This document shows positions 9,108-20,830 of a DNA stretch of 64,000 nucleotides, piece after piece. The stretch lies in assembly GCF_030013595.1 (NCBI RefSeq), contig NZ_CP122768.1. One strand, given 5' to 3'. A model generated the notes under the pieces. The model was not told the DNA's origin, ran no database searches, and was given only the letters and a program-made list of their open reading frames with translations. Every line of letters starts with the position of its first letter. The first letter of the stretch is position 1. The position numbers and the translations under genes are program-made. Source of the stretch: Escherichia coli (GTDB lineage: Bacteria; Pseudomonadota; Gammaproteobacteria; Enterobacterales; Enterobacteriaceae).

Positions 9108-10679
9108 TTACTGAGAGCTCAGATCAACTTTCCAGGGCAACAGATCGCGTACCCGGTTTGCCGGCCAGTCCTGGATATGTTCAATGACGTAACGCAGCCA
9201 CTTTTCTGGCTCCACATTGTTCAGACGGCATGTGCCGATCAGCGAGTACAACACCGCCGCATGTTCACCACCGCTGTCGGAACCCGCGAACATCCAGTTT
9301 TTCCGGCCTACGGCCACTCCCCGTAAGGCGTTCTCTGCGATGTTGTTGTCGATTTCCACCCAGCCATTACTGCAGTACACGTTCAGTGCATCCCACTGTT
9401 TCAGCAGGTATGCGAACGCTTTTGCCGTATCTGAGTGACGCGACAGTGTTTTCATCTGTTGCTGTATCCAGTCATACAGTGACTGCATCAGTGGCGCGGC
9501 TCTGGCTTTTCTTGCCGCCAGACGCTGTTCTGCTGAACAGCCCCGGACCTCTGCCTCGATGGCATACAGTTCACCGATACGCTGCAGGGCTTCCGTGGTG
9601 ATGTAGGTGGGCGCTCTTGCATGCACATCGTGGATTTTTCTCCGGGCATGAGCCATACACGCGGCTTCCGTTATTCTGCCGGATTCGTATAACGCCCGGT
9701 AACCACCGTAAGCATCGGCCTGAAGCACACCGCTGTAACCGGCCAGGTGATTTTGTGGATGGATACCTTTCCGGTCCGGACTGTACGCGAACCAGACCGC
9801 CGGGGGCATCTGTGAACCGGCGTTACGGTCATCACGGACGTAGACCCACAGCCGGGCTGTCCGGGTTTTACCGCTGCCCGGCTCCTGGACCGGGACGGGG
9901 ATATCATCAGCATGGACTTTACCGGGCATCAGCACATACTGGCGCAGGACGTCATACAGCGGCTCCAGCAGTTCAGCAACAGCACCTGTCCAGCGCCCCA
10001 GTGTGGCACGGCTCAGCTCCACTCCCTGACGACGGTATATTTCTGACTGGCGGTATAACGGCAGATGGTCTGCATATTTCCCGGTGACAACATGGGCCAG
10101 AAGCCCCGCTCCGGCATAACTGCGTGCAATGGGTTTTGAAGGTACTGGTGCCTGTACGATATGGTCGCACCGGCAACAGGCCTGTTTCGGACGTTGTGTT
10201 TCGATAACCTTAAAGGCGCTGCTGATAAGCTCCAGTTGCTCTGACACATCACATCCCAGAGAACTGAGTTCACCACCACAGGCAGGACAGCATTCCTCTT
10301 CCGGCCGGATAACCCGGGTTTCACGGGGAAGTGAGGCCGGTAACGGTTTACGGGCTGAAGACTGGCGCAGGGCGGATGGCAGTACCGGGTCATATTGCTC
10401 ACCCAGCGTTTCCGCCATTTCTTCCTGAAGTGCGCTGATTCGCTCCTGTGCTTCCTGTATCTGCCGTTCGGTTTTTGCACGAAGTTTTTCTGAGCTTTTA
10501 CCGAACTGCATACGTTGCAGTTTCGCAACCAGCGCCTTCAGCCGGTTGATTTCGGAAGCATAAGCCGCCACCCGCTGTGAGAGCAGGCGGTTGTATTCAG
10601 CCATCTGGCGGATGGTGTCCTGTTGCGTCTGCAACAGTGCCCGCAGGCGGGCGTTCTCATGAGCAAGTGAGGTGTCCAT
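9108..10679 (-). CDS. tnpC: IS66-family transposase TnpC (orf3)
   Basis: 523-aa protein with an N-terminal coiled coil, a Cys-rich zinc-finger region (CPACGG...CCRCD) and a DDE-type core. Confidence 0.85.
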
Positions 10680-10698
10680 ATCCTCACTTTACAACGGG

Positions 10699-11046
10699 TT
10701 ATATGCGGATTCCAGCGCGTTCCGTTCGTTTCGGGTGCTTCCAGTTGATACCTTCAAGAAGCATGGATAACTGAGCCGGAGTAAGGTGCACCTTGCCGTC
10801 ACGGGTGACTGGCCAGACGAAGCGGCCCCGCTCCAGGCGTTTGGTGAAGAGGCACAGTCCGTCACTGTCAGCCCACAACACTTTTATCTGGTCACCCCGG
10901 CGTCCGCGGAAGATGAACAGGTGTCCGGAGAACGGGTCATCCTTCAGGACGTTCTGAACTTTTGATGCCAGGCCGTTAAAGCCATTTCGCATATCGGTGA
11001 TACCTGCAACCAGCCAGATACGCGAACCTGCAGGGAGAGATATCAT
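10699..11046 (-). CDS. tnpB: IS66-family accessory protein TnpB (orf2)
   Basis: 115-aa protein (MISLPAGSRIWLVAGITDMRNGFNGL...) typical of IS66 Orf2. Confidence 0.8.
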   Translation of the reverse strand: MISLPAGSRIWLVAGITDMRNGFNGLASKVQNVLKDDPFSGHLFIFRGRRGDQIKVLWADSDGLCLFTKRLERGRFVWPVTRDGKVHLTPAQLSMLLEGINWKHPKRTERAGIRI

Positions 11047-11720
11047 CAGTGGCTGCTCCCTTTTATTTCGCGGATAAGTGTCTGTAATAACGCCGGCGTC
11101 AGTTTACCTTTAAGCCTGAGAGTTCCGGCCGGCAGAACCAGCTCACAACACAGACTGTCGGACGGTGTATTTATCTGCTCTGGTTCCTGTGCGGGGGCCG
11201 GGATTTTATTATCCGGCTCCGGCGTTAACGTCACGGGAAGCAGTGCCGGCATATTTTTTCCGGAAGGCAGCAGGCCACCTTTCCGGTATTGATGGCGCCA
11301 GTTGAAGAGCAGGTTATCGTTGATTCCGTTTTCCCGGGCGATCTGCGCCACACAGGCTCCGGGCTGCAGTGACTGCTCCACTAAGGCGATTTTAAACTCA
11401 TAAGGGAAGTTGGGCCGCCGGGGACGTTTTTTTACCACGGGGGCTTCGGATATAACGGTGCTTTCAGGACGTACGACTGGTACCGTGGAAAATTGTCCGT
11501 AAAGGCAGGCATCAAGTTCCTGCTCCGACATGCCTGCGGGCAAAGGCCACGAAAGGCCAGCTCTCCGAAAGCGCACGAACATACTACAAACTGTTGATTT
11601 TGGTACACCCAGGCGACGCCCGGCCACAACCCGGGGTAAATGTTCTTCAAAGTGAAGACGTAAAGCTTCAGTGATCCAGGTCCGGTGTTTCATACGATAG
11701 TGTCCATTAAAAATGGACAT
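11046..11720 (-). CDS. tnpA: IS66-family TnpA (orf1) with an N-terminal extension
   Basis: Helix-turn-helix region FPYEFKIALVEQSLQPGACVAQIARENGINDNLLFNWRHQY. The stop overlaps the tnpB start. Which Met is the true start is unresolved. Confidence 0.65.
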   Translation of the reverse strand: MSIFNGHYRMKHRTWITEALRLHFEEHLPRVVAGRRLGVPKSTVCSMFVRFRRAGLSWPLPAGMSEQELDACLYGQFSTVPVVRPESTVISEAPVVKKRPRRPNFPYEFKIALVEQSLQPGACVAQIARENGINDNLLFNWRHQYRKGGLLPSGKNMPALLPVTLTPEPDNKIPAPAQEPEQINTPSDSLCCELVLPAGTLRLKGKLTPALLQTLIREIKGSSH

Positions 11721-11772: not shown

Positions 11773-12237
11773 CTATTCAGCTTCATAAAGCTTTTTGAAC
11801 ATGGGGCTTTGATCCCAGGCGATCCCTTTGTAACGCTTCATATTTTTCCGCAATTCATCCTTTGAAAGATTCATAAAACGGATTTTTAATTTTTCATCGG
11901 TTTCAGTGTTGTAAACCAAATGTTCCATCCCACGCCAGGAGGACTCCAGTTTCTGAAATTCCGGATGACTCAGGATTAGTTTGATCTGCTCAGTTAATTT
12001 GAAATCGATCTGCTCAATAATCGCAGCAATACTTTTATAAGCGTCGTCACTGACGGTGACGGTATTTGTCAAAGCCTGTTGGGCCAGCGTCTGAACTGCT
12101 GCCTCAACAGCCTTTGCTGCCTGAGGTGTCTTGGGACGGAAGGCTTTATCCAGGAGCGAATCAAATTCAGTGTCCTGATAGGCAGTGGTTTGCGCAGCAG
12201 AGAGTTCGCCAGTCGCCAGAAGAGTATCGTTTACCAT
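11773..12237 (-). pseudogene. tssC: T6SS sheath large subunit TssC, truncated to the N-terminal 154 codons by the IS66 element
   Basis: Contains the conserved FQKLESSWRG block of the TssC/VipB N-terminus. The reading frame ends in a TAG formed at the IS junction, and the remaining ~350 codons are absent. Confidence 0.8.
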
Positions 12238-12261: not shown

Positions 12262-12807
12262 TTAGTCTGCTGTTCCCGTTTCACCTGATAAGACACTTTC
12301 CTGTTGAGCGACAGGTTTTGGCGCACTAGCCAGAGCTTTCAGTAACGTAGGGTCTTGTAATAGTTTGTTGATAAGATTTTCTGCTCCCGCTTTACCATCC
12401 ATGTAGGTTTGTAGGTTGGCAAGCTGAGTACGCGCTTCCAGCAGCTGGTTCAGGGCATCCACCTTACGGGCAATCTGCGCAGGCGAAAAATCGTCCATAT
12501 TCTCTAACGTGATATCGACCATTAACTGCCCTTCGCCCGTCAGCGTATTGGGGACAGCAAACGCCACGCGCGGCGCAATGGCTTTCATCCTCTCGTTGAA
12601 GTTATCGATATCAATATCAAGGAATTTACGATCGGTGACCGGCGGCAGCTCTTCACGCGGTTTACCCGCCAGGTCGGCCAGCACCGCCATGACAAACGGC
12701 AGTTCGATTTTTTTCTCGGAGCCGTAAATCTCAACGTCATACTCAATCTGCACGCGGGGCGCGCGGTTGCGGGCAATAAACTTCTGCGCGCTGTTGTTGA
12801 TAGCCAT
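12262..12807 (-). CDS. tssB: T6SS sheath small subunit TssB (VipA)
   Basis: 181-aa protein with the TssB signature IEYDVEIYGSEKKIELPFVMAVLADLAG. Confidence 0.85.
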   Translation of the reverse strand: MAINNSAQKFIARNRAPRVQIEYDVEIYGSEKKIELPFVMAVLADLAGKPREELPPVTDRKFLDIDIDNFNERMKAIAPRVAFAVPNTLTGEGQLMVDITLENMDDFSPAQIARKVDALNQLLEARTQLANLQTYMDGKAGAENLINKLLQDPTLLKALASAPKPVAQQESVLSGETGTAD

Positions 12808-12868: not shown

Positions 12869-13159
12869 TTAAAAATCATACGCAGAGAGTATTTTTATAA
12901 TCTCTTTGTTTTCTTTGTACTTTTCCCGAAGCACAGGGAGTGATTTCTTCGCCGGAGGACACCAGGTATCAACCCCCTTTTCGATGTCTCTTTTATCCTT
13001 CTCTGGTAAAGAACTGTCCCATTCACCAGCAAGATGCTGGCACATTTCCGCATTACTCAGAAAATGCTGTACATCCTGTGGTAAAGACGGTTCCCCCTGA
13101 ACACTGAAAGCGAACATCATTAACAGGAATGTCCACAACACCGGATAACGAAATGTCAT
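12869..13159 (-). CDS. Small secreted protein; putative immunity protein for the adjacent peptidase-like gene
   Basis: 96-aa ORF with a predicted Sec signal peptide (MTFRYPVLWTFLLMMFAFSVQG), two Cys residues, and a start 3 nt after the upstream gene's stop. Confidence 0.5.
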   Translation of the reverse strand: MTFRYPVLWTFLLMMFAFSVQGEPSLPQDVQHFLSNAEMCQHLAGEWDSSLPEKDKRDIEKGVDTWCPPAKKSLPVLREKYKENKEIIKILSAYDF

Positions 13160-13161
13160 AC

Positions 13162-13725
13162 TTAATGTCCATCAATTGACCAGTGGGGTATATCTGTATT
13201 TCCGCCTACAAATTTTCTGACGCCGTAACCCAGACCTACCGCCTGAAGCTGGGCATTCATTCCGGTTCGATGTAGTGTATTAATTGCAACATTCTGACCA
13301 TTGCTCCCCGCAATTGTTAATGTTCCGCTCCAACTGATATTCATATCTATCGCAGTACCGCGTGTATGGTTGGAGCTCAGTGCAGGCGCGACATTCAGAT
13401 TATTCATACCATAGGCCGTAACCATAGCCTGCGCCGCTTCAAGCGAGGCTTGCTCAGTCGGGTGAACCCACTCAATATCCACCCCCTCCATCGCCGGGAC
13501 GTTTTTTGCCTGAACGATTTCCTGAGCAATCAACCATGACCAGTGCATGAGATATGCTCTGGCGGGAGGGCGATATGTTGCAGAGATACTGACCCTTGCA
13601 CGCGCATTACCAAGCGCGCGCAAAAAATTATCTACCGATGCACGAAAAGTCCCCTGCAAATCATTAGTGGAAGAACTTCCAGGAAAGCGACTGACCCACA
13701 GTGCGCCACTTAATTCTTTTGCCAT
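13162..13725 (-). CDS. Putative LAS/M15-type zinc metallopeptidase; candidate T6SS peptidoglycan-hydrolase effector
   Basis: 187-aa protein without a signal peptide. It carries an exact SxHxxGxAxD motif (SNHTRGTAID) and C-terminal His residues (IPHWSIDGH). It lies between clpV and tssB. Confidence 0.5.
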   Translation of the reverse strand: MAKELSGALWVSRFPGSSSTNDLQGTFRASVDNFLRALGNARARVSISATYRPPARAYLMHWSWLIAQEIVQAKNVPAMEGVDIEWVHPTEQASLEAAQAMVTAYGMNNLNVAPALSSNHTRGTAIDMNISWSGTLTIAGSNGQNVAINTLHRTGMNAQLQAVGLGYGVRKFVGGNTDIPHWSIDGH

Positions 13726-13737
13726 AAGGATGCTCCA

Positions 13738-16371
13738 TTAATCCGTTTCAAAAATAATCTGTTCATCCTCATCAACACGAATGCGGATTTGCGTGATGGC
13801 CGTTTTCTCTGTCATCGCCTGCAACCAATAACGGGACAGTTGTGGGAGGATATGTTGTTCGATATAGCCGATGAGCAAACGAGCGCCGGTCTCGTGCATC
13901 GGGCAGCGCGACACAATATGCGTAATCAGTTCATCGCCATACACCAGTGAAACGCCATGCCGCTCCGCCATCCGATCCATCAATCTGCCAAGATGCAGGC
14001 GGGCAATAACACCACGCGCGGTCTCATCCAGCGGTAAATAAGGAATAACCGTCACACGCCCCAGGAAAGCCGCCGGGAAGTGTTTACGTAACTCCGGCAT
14101 TAACGCCTCTTTTAACCCTGCCGAATCGGGCATCAGCGCCGGATCTTCACAGAGCTGGCTGATAAGTTCCGCCCCCGCGTTAGTAGTCAACAACAGCGTG
14201 GTATTTTTGAAATCGATGTGGACACCTTCGCCATCTTCCATCGCCCCCTTATCAAACACCTGGAAGAACAGCTCGTGGACGTCGTGATGGGCTTTTTCAA
14301 TTTCATCTAGCAATACCACGCTCCAGGGATGGCGGCGTACCGCTTCCGTCAACACACCGCCTTCGCCATAGCCGACGTAGCCGGGCGGCGCGCCTTTCAG
14401 AGTGGAGACTGTGTGAGACTCCTGATACTCGCTCATGTTGATGGTGATCAGATTCTGTTCACCGCCATAGATTGCTTCTGCCAGTGCCAGCGCGGTCTCA
14501 GTCTTGCCTACTCCGGACGGCCCGGCCAGCAAAAAGACACCCACAGGCTTACGCGGGTCACCTAAACCCGCCCGCGCGGTCTGGATACGCTCGCCAATCT
14601 GCGCCAACGCATCCATCTGCCCGGTAACACGCTGCGCCAAACGGGTGGGCAATTCCAGTATCTGACTGGCTTCATCTTTCACCATCCGTCCGGCGGGAAT
14701 ACCGGTCCAGTCGGAGACAATCTCTGCCACCACGGTTGCACTGACTTCCGGGTACACGACAGGGTTTTCACCCTGCCAGCCTCTTAATGCCGTTTCTGCC
14801 TGTTGTAGAGTGATTTCGTCGCGCTCGCCAGGCGCTGCGCCGCGTTGCTCCTGTAAACTGCGAACCAACTCCAGTTCCTGCTGCCACCGCGCTTCGGTGT
14901 CAGAAAGATCGGCATTAAGCGATATAATCCGCGCCGTCAGTACATCGCCCCGCTCCGAGCGGATACCCATTTTTTCCTGCTTTAATAACAACTCCTGCTC
15001 CAGTTCGGCAGCGTTGAGCTGCTGGCGCAGATACTGGACTCTCGCAGGCGGGGTATGCAGCGACAGCGCTACACGGGCCGCCGCCGTATCCAACAGGCTG
15101 ATGGCCTTATCCGGTAGTTGCCGGGCCGGAATGTAACGGTGAGAAAGCTGTACGGCGGCGCGCACGGCCTCATCAAGAATCAGGACATCATGGTGTTCTT
15201 CAAGCGTGGTGACTAATCCGCGCACCATCTCAACAGCCGCAACCTCTTCCGGCTCAGCAACCTGCAATACCTGAAAACGCCGGGTCAGCGCCGGATCCTT
15301 TTCGATATGGCGTTTGTACTCGCTCCAGGTGGTTGCGCCGATGGTGCGCAGAGTGCCACGCGCCAGCGCCGGTTTCAGCAAGTTGGCAGCATCCCCCGTA
15401 CCGGATGTACCACCAGCGCCCACCAGGGTGTGAACTTCATCAACAAAAAGTATCACCGGCTGCGCCGAGCGCGCGGCCTCTTCCAGCAAAGCTTTCAGGC
15501 GGGATTCAAATTCACCCTTCATGGACGCCCCAGCCAGCAGCGCTCCAACATCCAGTGACAGCAACCGCACGTTACGCAGTGAAGGCGGCACTTCCCCCCC
15601 GGCAATCGCCAGCGCGAATCCTTCCACCACTGCCGTTTTCCCGACCCCCGCCTCGCCGGTCAGCAGCGGGTTGTTCTGGCGACGGCGCAGCAGAATATCC
15701 GTCATAGTACGGATCTCGTGTTCGCGGCCGGTGACCGGATCGATATTGCCTTCACGGGCCAGCGCAGTCATGTCCTGGCAGTATTTCGCCAGCGCGGATT
15801 TACTTCCGGTTGATTCGCCGGCAAAGACCTGGCTAGCTTCCCCCGGTACTGCAGAATTTAAATCCGAGCCGTCATAAGGCATTTCTGTTAATTCAGGAGA
15901 TGAAGTGATTAAAGACGGAAGAATATCTAATAGTTCATCTACCGGTAGCTCTGCCAATGGCGCACAAATATTTTTTAACACCCGACACAATTCTGGCGTG
16001 GTTAACCAGGCAAGTAATAACCATCCACTACGAATTTTTTGATCGCCAAAGCGGATACTTGCCAACATCCAGGCTTTTTCAACAGAAAGATCGATATGAT
16101 GGGAAAAATCGTTAATTACACTCGCTCCGGCAGGCAATATATTCAATTGCTGAATTAACGCCTTCTCAACATCAGCAGATGTTATTTGATAATGTCGAAG
16201 CACATTGTGAATGTCATTCTCTGGTTGTTGTATTAACTGATGCAACCAATGCGTCAGTTCGACATAAGGATTAGCGCGTAATTTACAGAACGTCGTCGCA
16301 GATTCCAAAGATCTAAACAAAGATTTGGTTAGCTTTCCATACAGTGCACTGCGCGAAACAGGAGTGTCCAT
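13738..16371 (-). CDS. clpV: T6SS AAA+ ATPase ClpV (TssH)
   Basis: 877-aa protein with two AAA+ modules (Walker A GEAGVGKT and GPSGVGKT) and a ClpV-type N-domain. Confidence 0.9.
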   Translation of the reverse strand: MDTPVSRSALYGKLTKSLFRSLESATTFCKLRANPYVELTHWLHQLIQQPENDIHNVLRHYQITSADVEKALIQQLNILPAGASVINDFSHHIDLSVEKAWMLASIRFGDQKIRSGWLLLAWLTTPELCRVLKNICAPLAELPVDELLDILPSLITSSPELTEMPYDGSDLNSAVPGEASQVFAGESTGSKSALAKYCQDMTALAREGNIDPVTGREHEIRTMTDILLRRRQNNPLLTGEAGVGKTAVVEGFALAIAGGEVPPSLRNVRLLSLDVGALLAGASMKGEFESRLKALLEEAARSAQPVILFVDEVHTLVGAGGTSGTGDAANLLKPALARGTLRTIGATTWSEYKRHIEKDPALTRRFQVLQVAEPEEVAAVEMVRGLVTTLEEHHDVLILDEAVRAAVQLSHRYIPARQLPDKAISLLDTAAARVALSLHTPPARVQYLRQQLNAAELEQELLLKQEKMGIRSERGDVLTARIISLNADLSDTEARWQQELELVRSLQEQRGAAPGERDEITLQQAETALRGWQGENPVVYPEVSATVVAEIVSDWTGIPAGRMVKDEASQILELPTRLAQRVTGQMDALAQIGERIQTARAGLGDPRKPVGVFLLAGPSGVGKTETALALAEAIYGGEQNLITINMSEYQESHTVSTLKGAPPGYVGYGEGGVLTEAVRRHPWSVVLLDEIEKAHHDVHELFFQVFDKGAMEDGEGVHIDFKNTTLLLTTNAGAELISQLCEDPALMPDSAGLKEALMPELRKHFPAAFLGRVTVIPYLPLDETARGVIARLHLGRLMDRMAERHGVSLVYGDELITHIVSRCPMHETGARLLIGYIEQHILPQLSRYWLQAMTEKTAITQIRIRVDEDEQIIFETD

Positions 16372-18947: not shown

Positions 18948-20830
18948 ATGGATCCACGGCTACTGGAATACTACAACCGCGAACTGAGCTATCTGCGGGA
19001 AACGGGAGCCGAATTTGCCGCCCGTCATCCTAAAGTCGCCGCCCGACTGGGTATGCAGGGAACGGATATTGCCGATCCGTATGTGGAGCGAATGGTCGAG
19101 GCCTTCAGCTTCCTGACCGCCCGCACGCAGCTAAAAATTGACGCTGAATTCCCCCGTTTCACCCAGCGTCTGCTGGAAGTGGTCAGCCCCAATTACGTCA
19201 CACCCACGCCCTCAATGAGCGTGGCGCAGCTTCATCCCAATCCGGAAGAAGGCGATCTGGCGAAGGGATTCACCGTCCCGCGCAACACGGCCTTTTTTTC
19301 CGCCATTCCGGAAGGCGAAAGTACCGCCTGCCAGTTTCGTAGCAGCCAGAATGTGACGCTGTGGCCGCTTGCCATCGAAGAGGTGCGGCTGACCGCCGCG
19401 CCGCCGGATATGCCTGCCCTGCACCGCTACCTGCCAGCCAACATTCACGTCGCTGGTGCGCTGCGTATTACCCTGCGCACCTTTGGTGAACTGACGTTCA
19501 GTCAGCTTGCAGGGCTGAACAAGCTGCCATTTTATCTCTGCGGCGAGGAGCGCACGGCCTCACACCTGTTCGAACTACTGCATACCAGCGCCATCGCGAG
19601 CCTGGCTGGCATTCCGGGGCATTTTGACGGCGCACTGGATGTGAATCTGAAACAGCCCGTTATGTACGAAGGCCTGGATCCGGATCAGGGACTGTTGCCG
19701 CTGGCGTGGAATGTGTTTCACGGCCATAACCTGCTACATGAATATTTTACCTGTCCGGAACGCTTCTTTTTTTCACCCCGACAGGCCTGTCTGCCGGGTT
19801 ACAGAAAATTAACGGCGGCGTGGCGGAGATTGTTATCCTGCTGAACCGCCTGCCGCCGGACTGGCTGATCCACCAGACAAACGCGGCACAGTTCAGCCTG
19901 TTCTGTACCCCGGTTATCAACCTGTTTCCCCGCGTCGCCGCCCGGATCGATGTCACGCACAGCACGACGGAACAGCATCTGGTGGTGGACAGAACCCATC
20001 CGCTGGATTATGAGGTGTTCTCGGTCCAGGAAGTGGAAGGGCTGGAAACTGACACCACACGGAAGATGGCCTTTCGCCCGCTCTACCACACCCGCAATAA
20101 TGATGAAGGCAATCACGGACGTTATTTTTCCCTGCGCCGGGAGCCGCGCCGGTTGTCGGAAAATGCCCGCCGCTATGGCACCCGCACCTCCTATACAGGA
20201 TCAGAAGTGTTCCTGTCGCTGGTTGACCAGTATGAAGCGCCGTACCCGGAAAATCTGCGCCATATCACCATCACGGCTATGGTCACCAACCGCGATCTGC
20301 CCTGTCTTATTGCCCGCAATGGACGGGACGATCTGACCGTGGATGCGGCCATCCCGGTGGCGGGCGTGGGGCTTATCCGTCCGCCGCGTCCGCCGCAGCC
20401 TCCGCTGGCTGAACGTGAAATGGCCTGGCGGTTGATCCGCCAGTTATCCTTTAACTATCTGCCGCTGGCCGATCTGGATCACCGTACCGGTGGTCAGGCG
20501 CTGCGCGATCTGCTTAACCTGTTTATTCCGGCGCATGACAGTCCGCAGTCGCGCCAGGTGCGCAGCCTGATTGGCTGCAACACCACCCCGGTCACCCGCC
20601 GTCTGCCCGGTTCCGGGCTGCTGGTCTATGGGCGCGGCGTCAGTTGTGAACTGACCGTGGATGAGGAGGGGTTCTCCGGTATCAGTCCGTATCTGTTCGG
20701 TCTGGTGTTGGAGCACTATATCGCCCGTCATGTTTCCATTAATACCTTCTCGCAGATGACGCTGCACAGCATGCAGCGCGGCAAAATTATGACCTGGCCT
20801 GCCAGGGCGGGACAGCGGGGAAGCGTATGA
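18948..20830 (+). pseudogene. tssF: T6SS baseplate protein TssF, interrupted by a frameshift in a T7 homopolymer
   Basis: Two overlapping ORFs (18948-19844 and 19820-20830) together give a TssF-sized protein of about 620 aa. The frame changes inside the T-run at 19767-19773. Confidence 0.75.

Follow-up and report, generated by a model that had tools for sequence, protein, structure and literature searches.

Two small genes that lie between clpV (tssH) and tssB in a type VI secretion system (T6SS) cluster of Escherichia coli very likely form an antibacterial effector-immunity module, in which a zinc peptidase of the LAS/M15 type would be accompanied by a periplasmic antidote. The genes code for proteins of 187 and 96 amino acids (aa) and are located in the aspV/dnaQ region of the chromosome, within a stretch of 64,000 nucleotides (nt) from contig NZ_CP122768.1 (assembly GCF_030013595.1) that is referred to as the window. 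The module is best described as an uncharacterised new family of a known kind, the peptidoglycan-targeting T6SS effector with periplasmic immunity. A first-pass annotation had read the two genes as an effector and its immunity gene, and this interpretation is supported computationally by the LAS/M15 fold, an invariant active-site motif, recurrent T6SS linkage, and an exported partner that co-occurs with the enzyme.

The genes are arranged head to tail on the minus strand in the order clpV/tssH, 187-aa open reading frame (ORF), 96-aa ORF, tssB. The features of the module and its two flanking genes are:

13162-13725, minus strand: candidate T6SS effector of 187 aa, a divergent zinc peptidase of predicted LAS/M15 fold, with no signal peptide
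13345-13374, minus strand: SNHTRGTAID motif (residues 118-127), read from the sequence, with H120 and D127 as predicted zinc ligands
13183-13194, minus strand: D178-I-P-H181 (DIPH, residues 178-181), with D178 as predicted catalytic acid/base and H181 as predicted third zinc ligand
12869-13159, minus strand: candidate immunity protein of 96 aa, with a Sec signal peptide and a mature three-helix domain of about 74 residues containing C40 and C67
13094-13159, minus strand: predicted signal peptide of the 96-aa protein (residues 1-22, cleavage after VQG), from the sequence and a hydrophobicity heuristic
13738-16371, minus strand: clpV/tssH, T6SS sheath-recycling ATPase of 877 aa, directly upstream of the 187-aa ORF in the same orientation (ORF and RefSeq annotation of identical DNA)
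12262-12807, minus strand: tssB, small sheath subunit, directly downstream of the 96-aa ORF (ORF and RefSeq annotation)

The first-pass annotation had placed two small genes between clpV and tssB, and every element was recovered at the coordinates above. From the clpV stop to the ATG of the 187-aa ORF there are 12 nt, the two small genes are 2 nt apart (TAA-GT-ATG), and another 61 nt lead up to tssB. The 96-aa ORF had been said to start 3 nt after the preceding stop, and its ATG does begin at the third base past it. No terminator-like site lies within the spacers from clpV to tssB, and the sites that were detected are at chance level. In RefSeq the flanking genes are annotated as tssH and tssB, and the pair is called 'hypothetical protein' or 'peptidoglycan-binding domain-containing protein'. 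Public records of the family use the same two names and 'secreted protein', and a few distant members have been automatically named M15.

Fold, active site and likely substrate of the 187-aa protein

The 187-aa protein was placed by structure comparison and motif register alone, plain sequence searches having been uninformative. The AlphaFold2 model has a predicted local distance difference test score (pLDDT) of 96.7 and a predicted template modelling score (pTM) of 0.87. In a Foldseek comparison of this model with the PDB, the top 18 matches are all LAS/M15 zinc peptidases, Serratia ChiX among them, and the predicted model has the alpha/beta fold of the Hedgehog/DD-peptidase group, to which the M15 family of MEROPS clan MD belongs. 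The metal-site pattern of LAS/M15 enzymes, His-x6-Asp followed by [DE]-x-x-H, is present as H120-x6-D127 and D178-x2-H181. Like the other computational checks that had been proposed, the test for LAS/M15 similarity turned out in favour of the first-pass reading: the structure comparison leads to LAS/M15 enzymes with the zinc ligands aligned, although a significant Pfam match to Peptidase_M15 or VanY was not obtained.

The first-pass annotation had recognised SNHTRGTAID as a LAS/M15 signature. A profile comparison with hhalign aligns it with SKHITGDAID of the L-alanoyl-D-glutamate peptidase of phage T5, so that H120 and D127 correspond to H66 and D73, and the C-terminal D130-G-G-H133 of the phage endolysin corresponds to D178-I-P-H181. 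We take H66, D73 and H133 to be the zinc ligands of the phage enzyme. Among 75 homologues (52-85% identity) H88, H120, D127, D178 and H181 are invariant, as are W182 and S183, which follow directly on H181. Motif conservation among homologues, which had been named as a test, is therefore complete. Because H120, D127, D178 and H181 do not vary in this set, the SNHTRGTAID and DIPH motifs are more than a chance resemblance. A C-terminal histidine of IPHWSIDGH had been suggested as the third ligand. This holds for H181 of the D-x-x-H motif, as a prediction, and not for the second histidine, H187, which is not conserved among homologues. Zinc binding by H120, D127 and H181 is thus predicted from the sequence. 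As no Pfam M15 model is significant, the protein is not a typical VanY/M15 member but belongs to a divergent LAS family for which no model exists. As judged from the model, the LAS/M15 fold and catalytic constellation are present in a family that stands outside every current sequence model.

Signal-peptide calls in this study were made throughout by a hydrophobicity heuristic. The 187-aa protein has no hydrophobic N-terminus, which bears out the earlier statement that it lacks a signal peptide. A hydrophobic N-terminal segment was found in 8 of 73 enzyme ORFs. All of these are from Paenibacillus, and no proteobacterial homologue has one.

Three observations point to peptidoglycan as the inferred substrate. 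First, the domain is fused elsewhere to other cell-wall hydrolase domains (SLT transglycosylase, pesticin-like lysozyme, PGRP amidase, GH19, M23). Second, a Sec signal peptide is present in the homologues from Paenibacillus (45-47% identity). Third, the homologues from Gram-negative bacteria have exported partners. The Paenibacillus proteins are presumably secreted lytic enzymes or autolysins. In the group of P. tyrfis, P. elgii and P. ehimensis (L047, L049-L051, L053, L054, L057, L060, L062) Sec signal peptides occur without a partner gene, and in four of these loci (L047, L051, L054, L060) the homologue lies between ArsR-type regulators and MFS-like transporters. As to the bond that would be cut, the Asp-x-x-His motif and the matches to Ply500, LysB4 and the T5 enzyme are pointers to an L-Ala-D-Glu endopeptidase, but the matches to VanY/LdcB carboxypeptidases are equally strong. 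The D-x-x-H motif and the closest structural relatives of the model therefore point to either an L-Ala-D-Glu endopeptidase or a VanY/LdcB-type carboxypeptidase.

The exported partner and the genomic setting of the family

The N-terminus of the 96-aa protein reads MTFRYPVLWTFLLMMFAFSVQG, with EPS following the predicted cleavage site. It has a charged n-region, a hydrophobic core of 14 residues, and V-Q-G at positions -3 to -1. Genomic distribution was analysed on 72 genome loci, obtained by scanning one genome per species, and the neighbouring genes were tested with T6SS reference proteins. Homologues of the 96-aa protein were traced by an iterative search of the genes that adjoin enzyme homologues. 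One is found directly 3' of the enzyme gene in 40 of the 72 loci, from Xenorhabdus to Acetobacter and Massilia. Each of the 38 partner homologues analysed for export begins with a hydrophobic segment, whose score is above the threshold in 37 of them and 1.82 in the remaining one, and 14 of the 38 carry a lipobox. Together with the n-region, core and cleavage pattern, this supports the Sec signal peptide that had been noticed at the outset. C40 and C67 are invariant in 33 paired sequences, which fits a periplasmic disulfide.

Enzyme and partner were also folded as one chain, with the construct enzyme-(GGGGS)6-mature partner and the 33 paired sequences. The pTM is 0.80 for 291 residues, including the disordered linker of 30 residues. 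If the two domains were placed independently, a pTM near 0.6 would be expected by our own estimate. Both domains have a pLDDT of at least 88, the partner forms three helices at pLDDT 88-96, and the linker is below 50. This lends indirect support to a complex of enzyme and partner; the position of the interface is not given by the model.

Two other views of the 96-aa protein were considered and rejected. A word-indexed search had confined it to Escherichia, Salmonella and Citrobacter, which was overturned by the iterative neighbour search, as the family is widespread. A match to StoA/ResA thiol-disulfide oxidoreductases in NCBIfam (E = 7e-7, 29 bits against a cut-off of 210) is considered spurious: it is produced by the signal peptide and by a local WCPP, which the homologues do not share, and the 96-aa protein contains no CxxC motif. 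A comparison of the exported proteins downstream of the enzyme in Rahnella and Ralstonia with the E. coli 96-aa family showed no homology, so immunity would be supplied by different families in different lineages. Rubrivivax has tandem copies of the partner gene. In a metagenome-assembled genome (MAG) of Erwinia, enzyme and partner form a single ORF of 285 aa (L014:9998-10855), by loss of the stop codon or by an assembly error, and in Duganella a deletion has joined the enzyme's N-terminal portion to the C-terminal portion of its partner (L079:9962-10369).

Linkage of homologues to T6SS genes, a further check that had been proposed, recurs across taxa, the genes being found repeatedly beside clpV/tssB, PAAR, VgrG or Hcp. 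In 15 of the 72 loci a PAAR gene directly precedes the enzyme gene and ends where the latter begins; L003 and L005 likewise have a PAAR gene directly upstream. VgrG is directly upstream in two Pseudomonas loci, Hcp is adjacent in one Massilia locus, and Hcp or VgrG is found at a distance of 8-10 kb in two more. One locus, from another Escherichia species, has the same clpV-tssB slot, and one, from Rhodanobacter, encodes a fusion of PAAR, a glycine linker and the enzyme inside a T6SS cluster. Ralstonia and Herbaspirillum have modules of PAAR, enzyme and a small gene. On plasmid PRA1 of Rahnella, a 1162-aa protein that is encoded directly after VgrG in a T6SS cluster ends with the domain. The slot itself, with enzyme and partner between clpV and tssB, is occupied by orthologues of 73-91% identity (73-80% for those on metagenome contigs). 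The rest of the 72 loci hold orphan modules of two genes, surrounded by housekeeping genes. When the upstream genes of loci without a detected T6SS gene were scanned with Pfam for a hidden PAAR or adaptor, one more Hcp was found and the rest were housekeeping genes. The pair thus combines T6SS linkage that recurs across taxa with a signal-less enzyme followed by an exported partner, and with co-inheritance that includes orphan immunity genes.

At 50% identity this large family comprises 1152 clusters, and its domain is often C-terminal in proteins of up to 1317 aa, which is the pattern of a polymorphic toxin domain. Several architectures deserve mention in their own right. The upstream PAAR proteins (L003:7457-8053, L005:7415-8008, and 15 loci of L008-L079) have about 200 aa with a Pro/Ser-rich linker and end in a conserved extension of about 70 residues that may serve this effector as its docking domain. 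The 1162-aa protein from Rahnella aquatilis HX2 plasmid PRA1 (L089:4043-9127) is followed by three different proteins with signal peptides, and its N-terminal part has a GNCAKF stretch that resembles, by appearance only, an amidase active-site motif. Homologues with N-terminal extensions are found in MAGs of Chloroflexi (L038:67-870, L059:1729-3235). The protein from L059 and its neighbour have a '...IGN.AV.R.LAQR' motif, which may resemble the N-terminal region found in toxins of the DUF4157 type that are associated with contractile injection systems.

The locus in this strain, in E. coli and in Salmonella

The T6SS cluster is interrupted downstream of tssB in this strain:

11773-12237, minus strand: truncated tssC, with the first 154 codons left (the alignment to intact clusters ends at window position 11774; intact tssC has 1515 nt)
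9078-11720, minus strand: ISCro1-like element of the IS66 family, with the ORFs tnpA (11046-11720), tnpB (10699-11046) and transposase (9108-10679)

This insertion sequence (IS) is 100% identical to an annotated ISCro1 copy in locus L002. It stands in place of all that would follow in the cluster, from the missing part of tssC to rhs, and its left flank runs into fadE. In intact relatives, tssC is followed by tae4/tai4, hcp, tssJKL, tlde1 and its partner, tssM, tagF, a glucosaminidase pair, vgrG and rhs; intact E. coli clusters thus carry three other effector-immunity pairs directed at the cell wall (Tae4/Tai4, Tlde1, glucosaminidase). Upstream, tssF (18948-20830) has a 1-nt deletion in a T8 run at position 19767 when compared to a genome of 99.9% identity, so that it is split into two ORFs of 298 and 336 aa. 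The frameshift may be real, or the homopolymer may have been misread in sequencing. Judging from the truncation by IS66, a T6SS encoded at this locus cannot be functional in this strain, and the 187-aa toxin is probably undeliverable by this cluster.

The pair is rare in the species. It occurs in 116 of 5426 complete E. coli genomes, and a search with the tssB allele of the window likewise matches 116, so that the pair appears to be fixed in this rare, SPI-6-like cluster (SPI-6, Salmonella pathogenicity island 6). The exact allele of the window is found on 169 contigs. It encodes a P152H exchange (codon 152, window positions 13270-13272) in the PRTGMN motif, where at least 90% of homologues have Pro, and every other E. 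coli allele that was read has Pro as well. A minority of E. coli alleles has D127N at a predicted zinc ligand, and one of these also has H181Y. The alleles concerned are P0001, P0172, P0176, P0177, P0179 and P0180; as far as their sequences go, they may be naturally inactivated toxins.

In Salmonella, the corresponding slot has already been flagged. Blondel et al. 2023 (PMC10469887) list a candidate 'L-Ala, D-Glu endopeptidase' effector of 32 aa in SPI-6 VR1, based on bioinformatic evidence only, which was found in 18 of 60 genomes (PMC10469887), so the idea of an endopeptidase effector at this position is not wholly new. In the Salmonella enterica locus that we analysed (L080), clpV and the partner gene are separated by a gap of 85 nt (3916-4000). 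The 32-aa ORF is MPKELSGAQWVYGVTKFVGGNTDKPHWSIDGH, which corresponds to residues 1-10 and about 167-187 of the enzyme (about the first 10 and the last 21), joined in frame. Since the whole catalytic core is deleted, the 32-aa product cannot be an enzyme. As the ORF results from an in-frame internal deletion, the Salmonella 'effector' is a deletion scar, with an immunity gene left orphaned next to it, and it is E. coli that has the gene intact.

These observations bear on whether the pair still functions in the strain from which the window is derived. As the cluster has been cut by the IS66 element, the module is probably a remnant here, with the immunity gene as its sole usable part. According to this explanation, which we rate slightly above an even chance, the pair is a non-functional relic in this genome, of which only the immunity gene would still be of use, by protecting the cell against relatives that have kept the weapon. 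It is in line with the loss of tssC after codon 154 and the absence of the distal genes (hcp, tssJKLM, vgrG etc.) from the window, the tssF deletion, the P152H exchange that is confined to this allele among the E. coli alleles read, independent IS damage to the same cluster in other strains, and the retention of the immunity gene alone in Salmonella. On the other hand, both ORFs are intact with every predicted catalytic residue present, the exact allele is found on as many as 169 contigs, a second T6SS outside the 64-kb window could deliver the enzyme, and the tssF frameshift could be a sequencing error. The relic explanation concerns this strain only and is compatible with an effector-immunity function of the family.

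Proposed mechanism, alternative explanations and relation to known systems

For the family, we infer a mechanism of T6SS-dependent secretion. The 187-aa enzyme would be made in the cytoplasm without a signal peptide and would then be loaded onto the T6SS. In the enterobacterial SPI-6-like cluster it would probably travel on its own as a small cargo, perhaps inside the Hcp tube, and elsewhere the loading route would be via PAAR or VgrG. The effector would be injected into the periplasm of neighbouring Gram-negative cells. There, with zinc on H120, D127 and H181 and with D178 as general base, it would hydrolyse a peptide bond in the stem peptide of peptidoglycan. Toxicity would result from the weakened wall of the target cell. 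The 96-aa protein would be exported by Sec, lose its signal peptide, and fold into a three-helix bundle with a C40-C67 disulfide. By binding the enzyme directly, the mature protein would inhibit it and shield sister cells.

Several points weigh against reading the pair as an effector and its immunity protein. The first is the outcome of the sequence searches. A Pfam scan of the 187-aa protein gave no significant M15 model (best Peptidase_M15_4, E = 0.12). When 75 homologues were scanned singly, none reached E = 0.001 with any family, VanY being best with 4e-3 and found for 3 of the 75. In NCBIfam, the D-Ala-D-Ala dipeptidase DdpX is matched with E = 0.021 and 14.5 bits against a cut-off of 176, and PDB sequences gave nothing significant, either with the single sequence or with the profile of 75 sequences. 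The second is the genomic setting: about two-thirds of the genome loci have no T6SS gene within 10 kb and lie among housekeeping neighbours. The third is that the co-fold is indirect, as it is judged on pTM and pLDDT alone, with the five models ranging in pLDDT from 78 to 88. The P152H exchange, the D127N and H181Y alleles and the truncated T6SS of this strain belong here as well. Finally, the literature searched yielded no experiment on secretion, toxicity, zinc binding or neutralisation that involves a member of the family. PHROGs and PADLOC searches with the 187-aa protein gave nothing significant, nothing specific to E. coli on this family turned up in the searched literature, and the supplement text of a 2026 survey of Salmonella effectors, as far as it was accessible, has no matching entry.

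Two further explanations assign the enzyme to the producing cell itself. In the first, it would be a housekeeping wall remodeller like TagX that allows T6SS assembly through the peptidoglycan of the producer, with the small protein as its regulator. There is a precedent in Acinetobacter, where TagX, a LAS-type L,D-endopeptidase encoded in the T6SS cluster, is needed for T6SS biogenesis (PMC5061870). The position of the gene among core genes (clpV, tssB) and its presence in all 116 E. coli genomes with this tssB allele would also be consistent with such a function. However, without a signal peptide or membrane anchor the protein could not reach its own periplasm by Sec. The family also occurs in toxin-like architectures (orphan two-gene modules far from any T6SS, PAAR fusions, the C-terminus of a large VgrG-linked protein). 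Salmonella SPI-6 does without the enzyme, which has suffered the internal deletion, and has kept the small exported protein. Moreover, Paenibacillus, which has no T6SS, secretes a homologue. We rejected a TagX-like accessory role on the missing hydrophobic N-terminus, the conserved exported partner and the loss of the enzyme core in Salmonella SPI-6, and regard it as very improbable.

The second, to which we give the least credence of all, would make the 187-aa protein a cytoplasmic VanX/DdpX-like dipeptidase or recycling enzyme of the producer with an unrelated neighbour and an incidental T6SS position; the missing signal peptide and the weak DdpX match would fit, but it was rejected because in 40 of the 72 loci, from distant taxa, the exported partner comes right after the enzyme and is predicted to dock on it, the enzyme gene recurs next to, or fused with, PAAR and VgrG, other proteins combine the domain with wall hydrolases that act outside the cytoplasm, Gram-positive relatives are secreted by Sec, and the gene is missing from most E. 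coli.

As an effector-immunity pair, the module follows the same logic as Tae1-4/Tai, Tge/Tgi and Tlde1/Tldi1, especially of those in Salmonella SPI-6, where a small hydrolase without signal peptide is followed, within a T6SS cluster, by the gene for a periplasmic or lipoprotein immunity factor. According to RefSeq names, Tae4/Tai4 and Tlde1 are carried by the same E. coli cluster in its intact form. The enzyme differs from these effectors in being a zinc metallopeptidase of LAS fold and not a papain-like or NlpC/P60 amidase, a glycoside hydrolase, a lysozyme-like or a YkuD-fold enzyme, and the 96-aa protein represents a distinct immunity family with three predicted helices. An NCBIfam scan assigned neither protein to a Tae, Tai or Tlde1 family. 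Together with the different fold, this agrees with the initial impression that neither is a described Tae or Tge family member. The Salmonella SPI-6 VR1 candidate occupies the same tssH-tssB slot with a homologous exported protein downstream, but its catalytic core is deleted, in contrast to the intact 187 aa in E. coli.

With the M15C L-alanoyl-D-glutamate endopeptidases (T5 endolysin, Ply500, LysB4, RB49 peptidase, Serratia ChiX) the 187-aa protein has both the S-x-H-x-x-G-x-A-I-D motif and the C-terminal Asp-x-x-His in common; in VanX and VanY the C-terminal motif is Glu-x-x-His. It differs from them in that structural alignments yield only 13-18% identity with no significant profile match; it also exceeds them in length by about 50 residues and has an additional helical region at its N-terminus. 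The 187-aa gene does not lie in a holin/endolysin cassette; its partner is an exported inhibitor-like protein, and it is linked to a T6SS. The D,D- and L,D-carboxypeptidases of the VanY/LdcB/DacB type (M15B) have the same His/Asp/His metal site, and VanY is the best sub-threshold Pfam family among members of the new family. However, M15B enzymes are membrane-anchored or secreted, have housekeeping or resistance functions and carry Glu-x-x-His, whereas the 187-aa family has Asp-x-x-His, toxin-type neighbourhoods and no export signal.

Peptidoglycan peptidases of the LAS/M15 type have been described at T6SS loci before, as is the case here: TagX, the WHIX-fused 'Peptidase M15-like' proteins (PMC12135965), and Tpe14 of A. 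baumannii (PMC6833914), M15-like domains having been predicted in the WHIX effectors and in Tpe14 in these studies. By their descriptions, all are set apart from the 187-aa family. TagX acts on the wall of the producer and has no immunity partner, and in the WHIX and Tpe14 proteins an M15 domain that is recognisable by Pfam or CDD is part of a large multi-domain effector.

A more far-reaching view seems possible to us, though somewhat short of probable. The E. coli gene would be the intact prototype of a LAS-fold toxin clade of about 1150 clusters at 50% identity, which uses at least four T6SS loading architectures, Sec in Paenibacillus, and a position as C-terminal module of large polymorphic toxins. 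The clade would cut L-Ala-D-Glu, a bond that no characterised T6SS effector targets, and would be countered by at least three unrelated exported immunity families, one of them a new disulfide-bonded three-helix metallopeptidase inhibitor.

The gain is incremental, as the concept of a wall hydrolase with periplasmic immunity is established and M15-like domains in T6SS effectors have already been predicted. Within this frame, the family would add a zinc-metallopeptidase class to the amidase, glycosidase and transpeptidase-like T6SS effectors that have been characterised, possibly with a new cleavage site, and the 96-aa protein would be a new small protein inhibitor of LAS peptidases. The corrected record of SPI-6 VR1 alters how effector repertoires and immunity-only genotypes are counted in Salmonella. 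Effectors that degrade the cell wall are a source of lytic enzymes and provide insight into the competition among Enterobacteriaceae of the gut.

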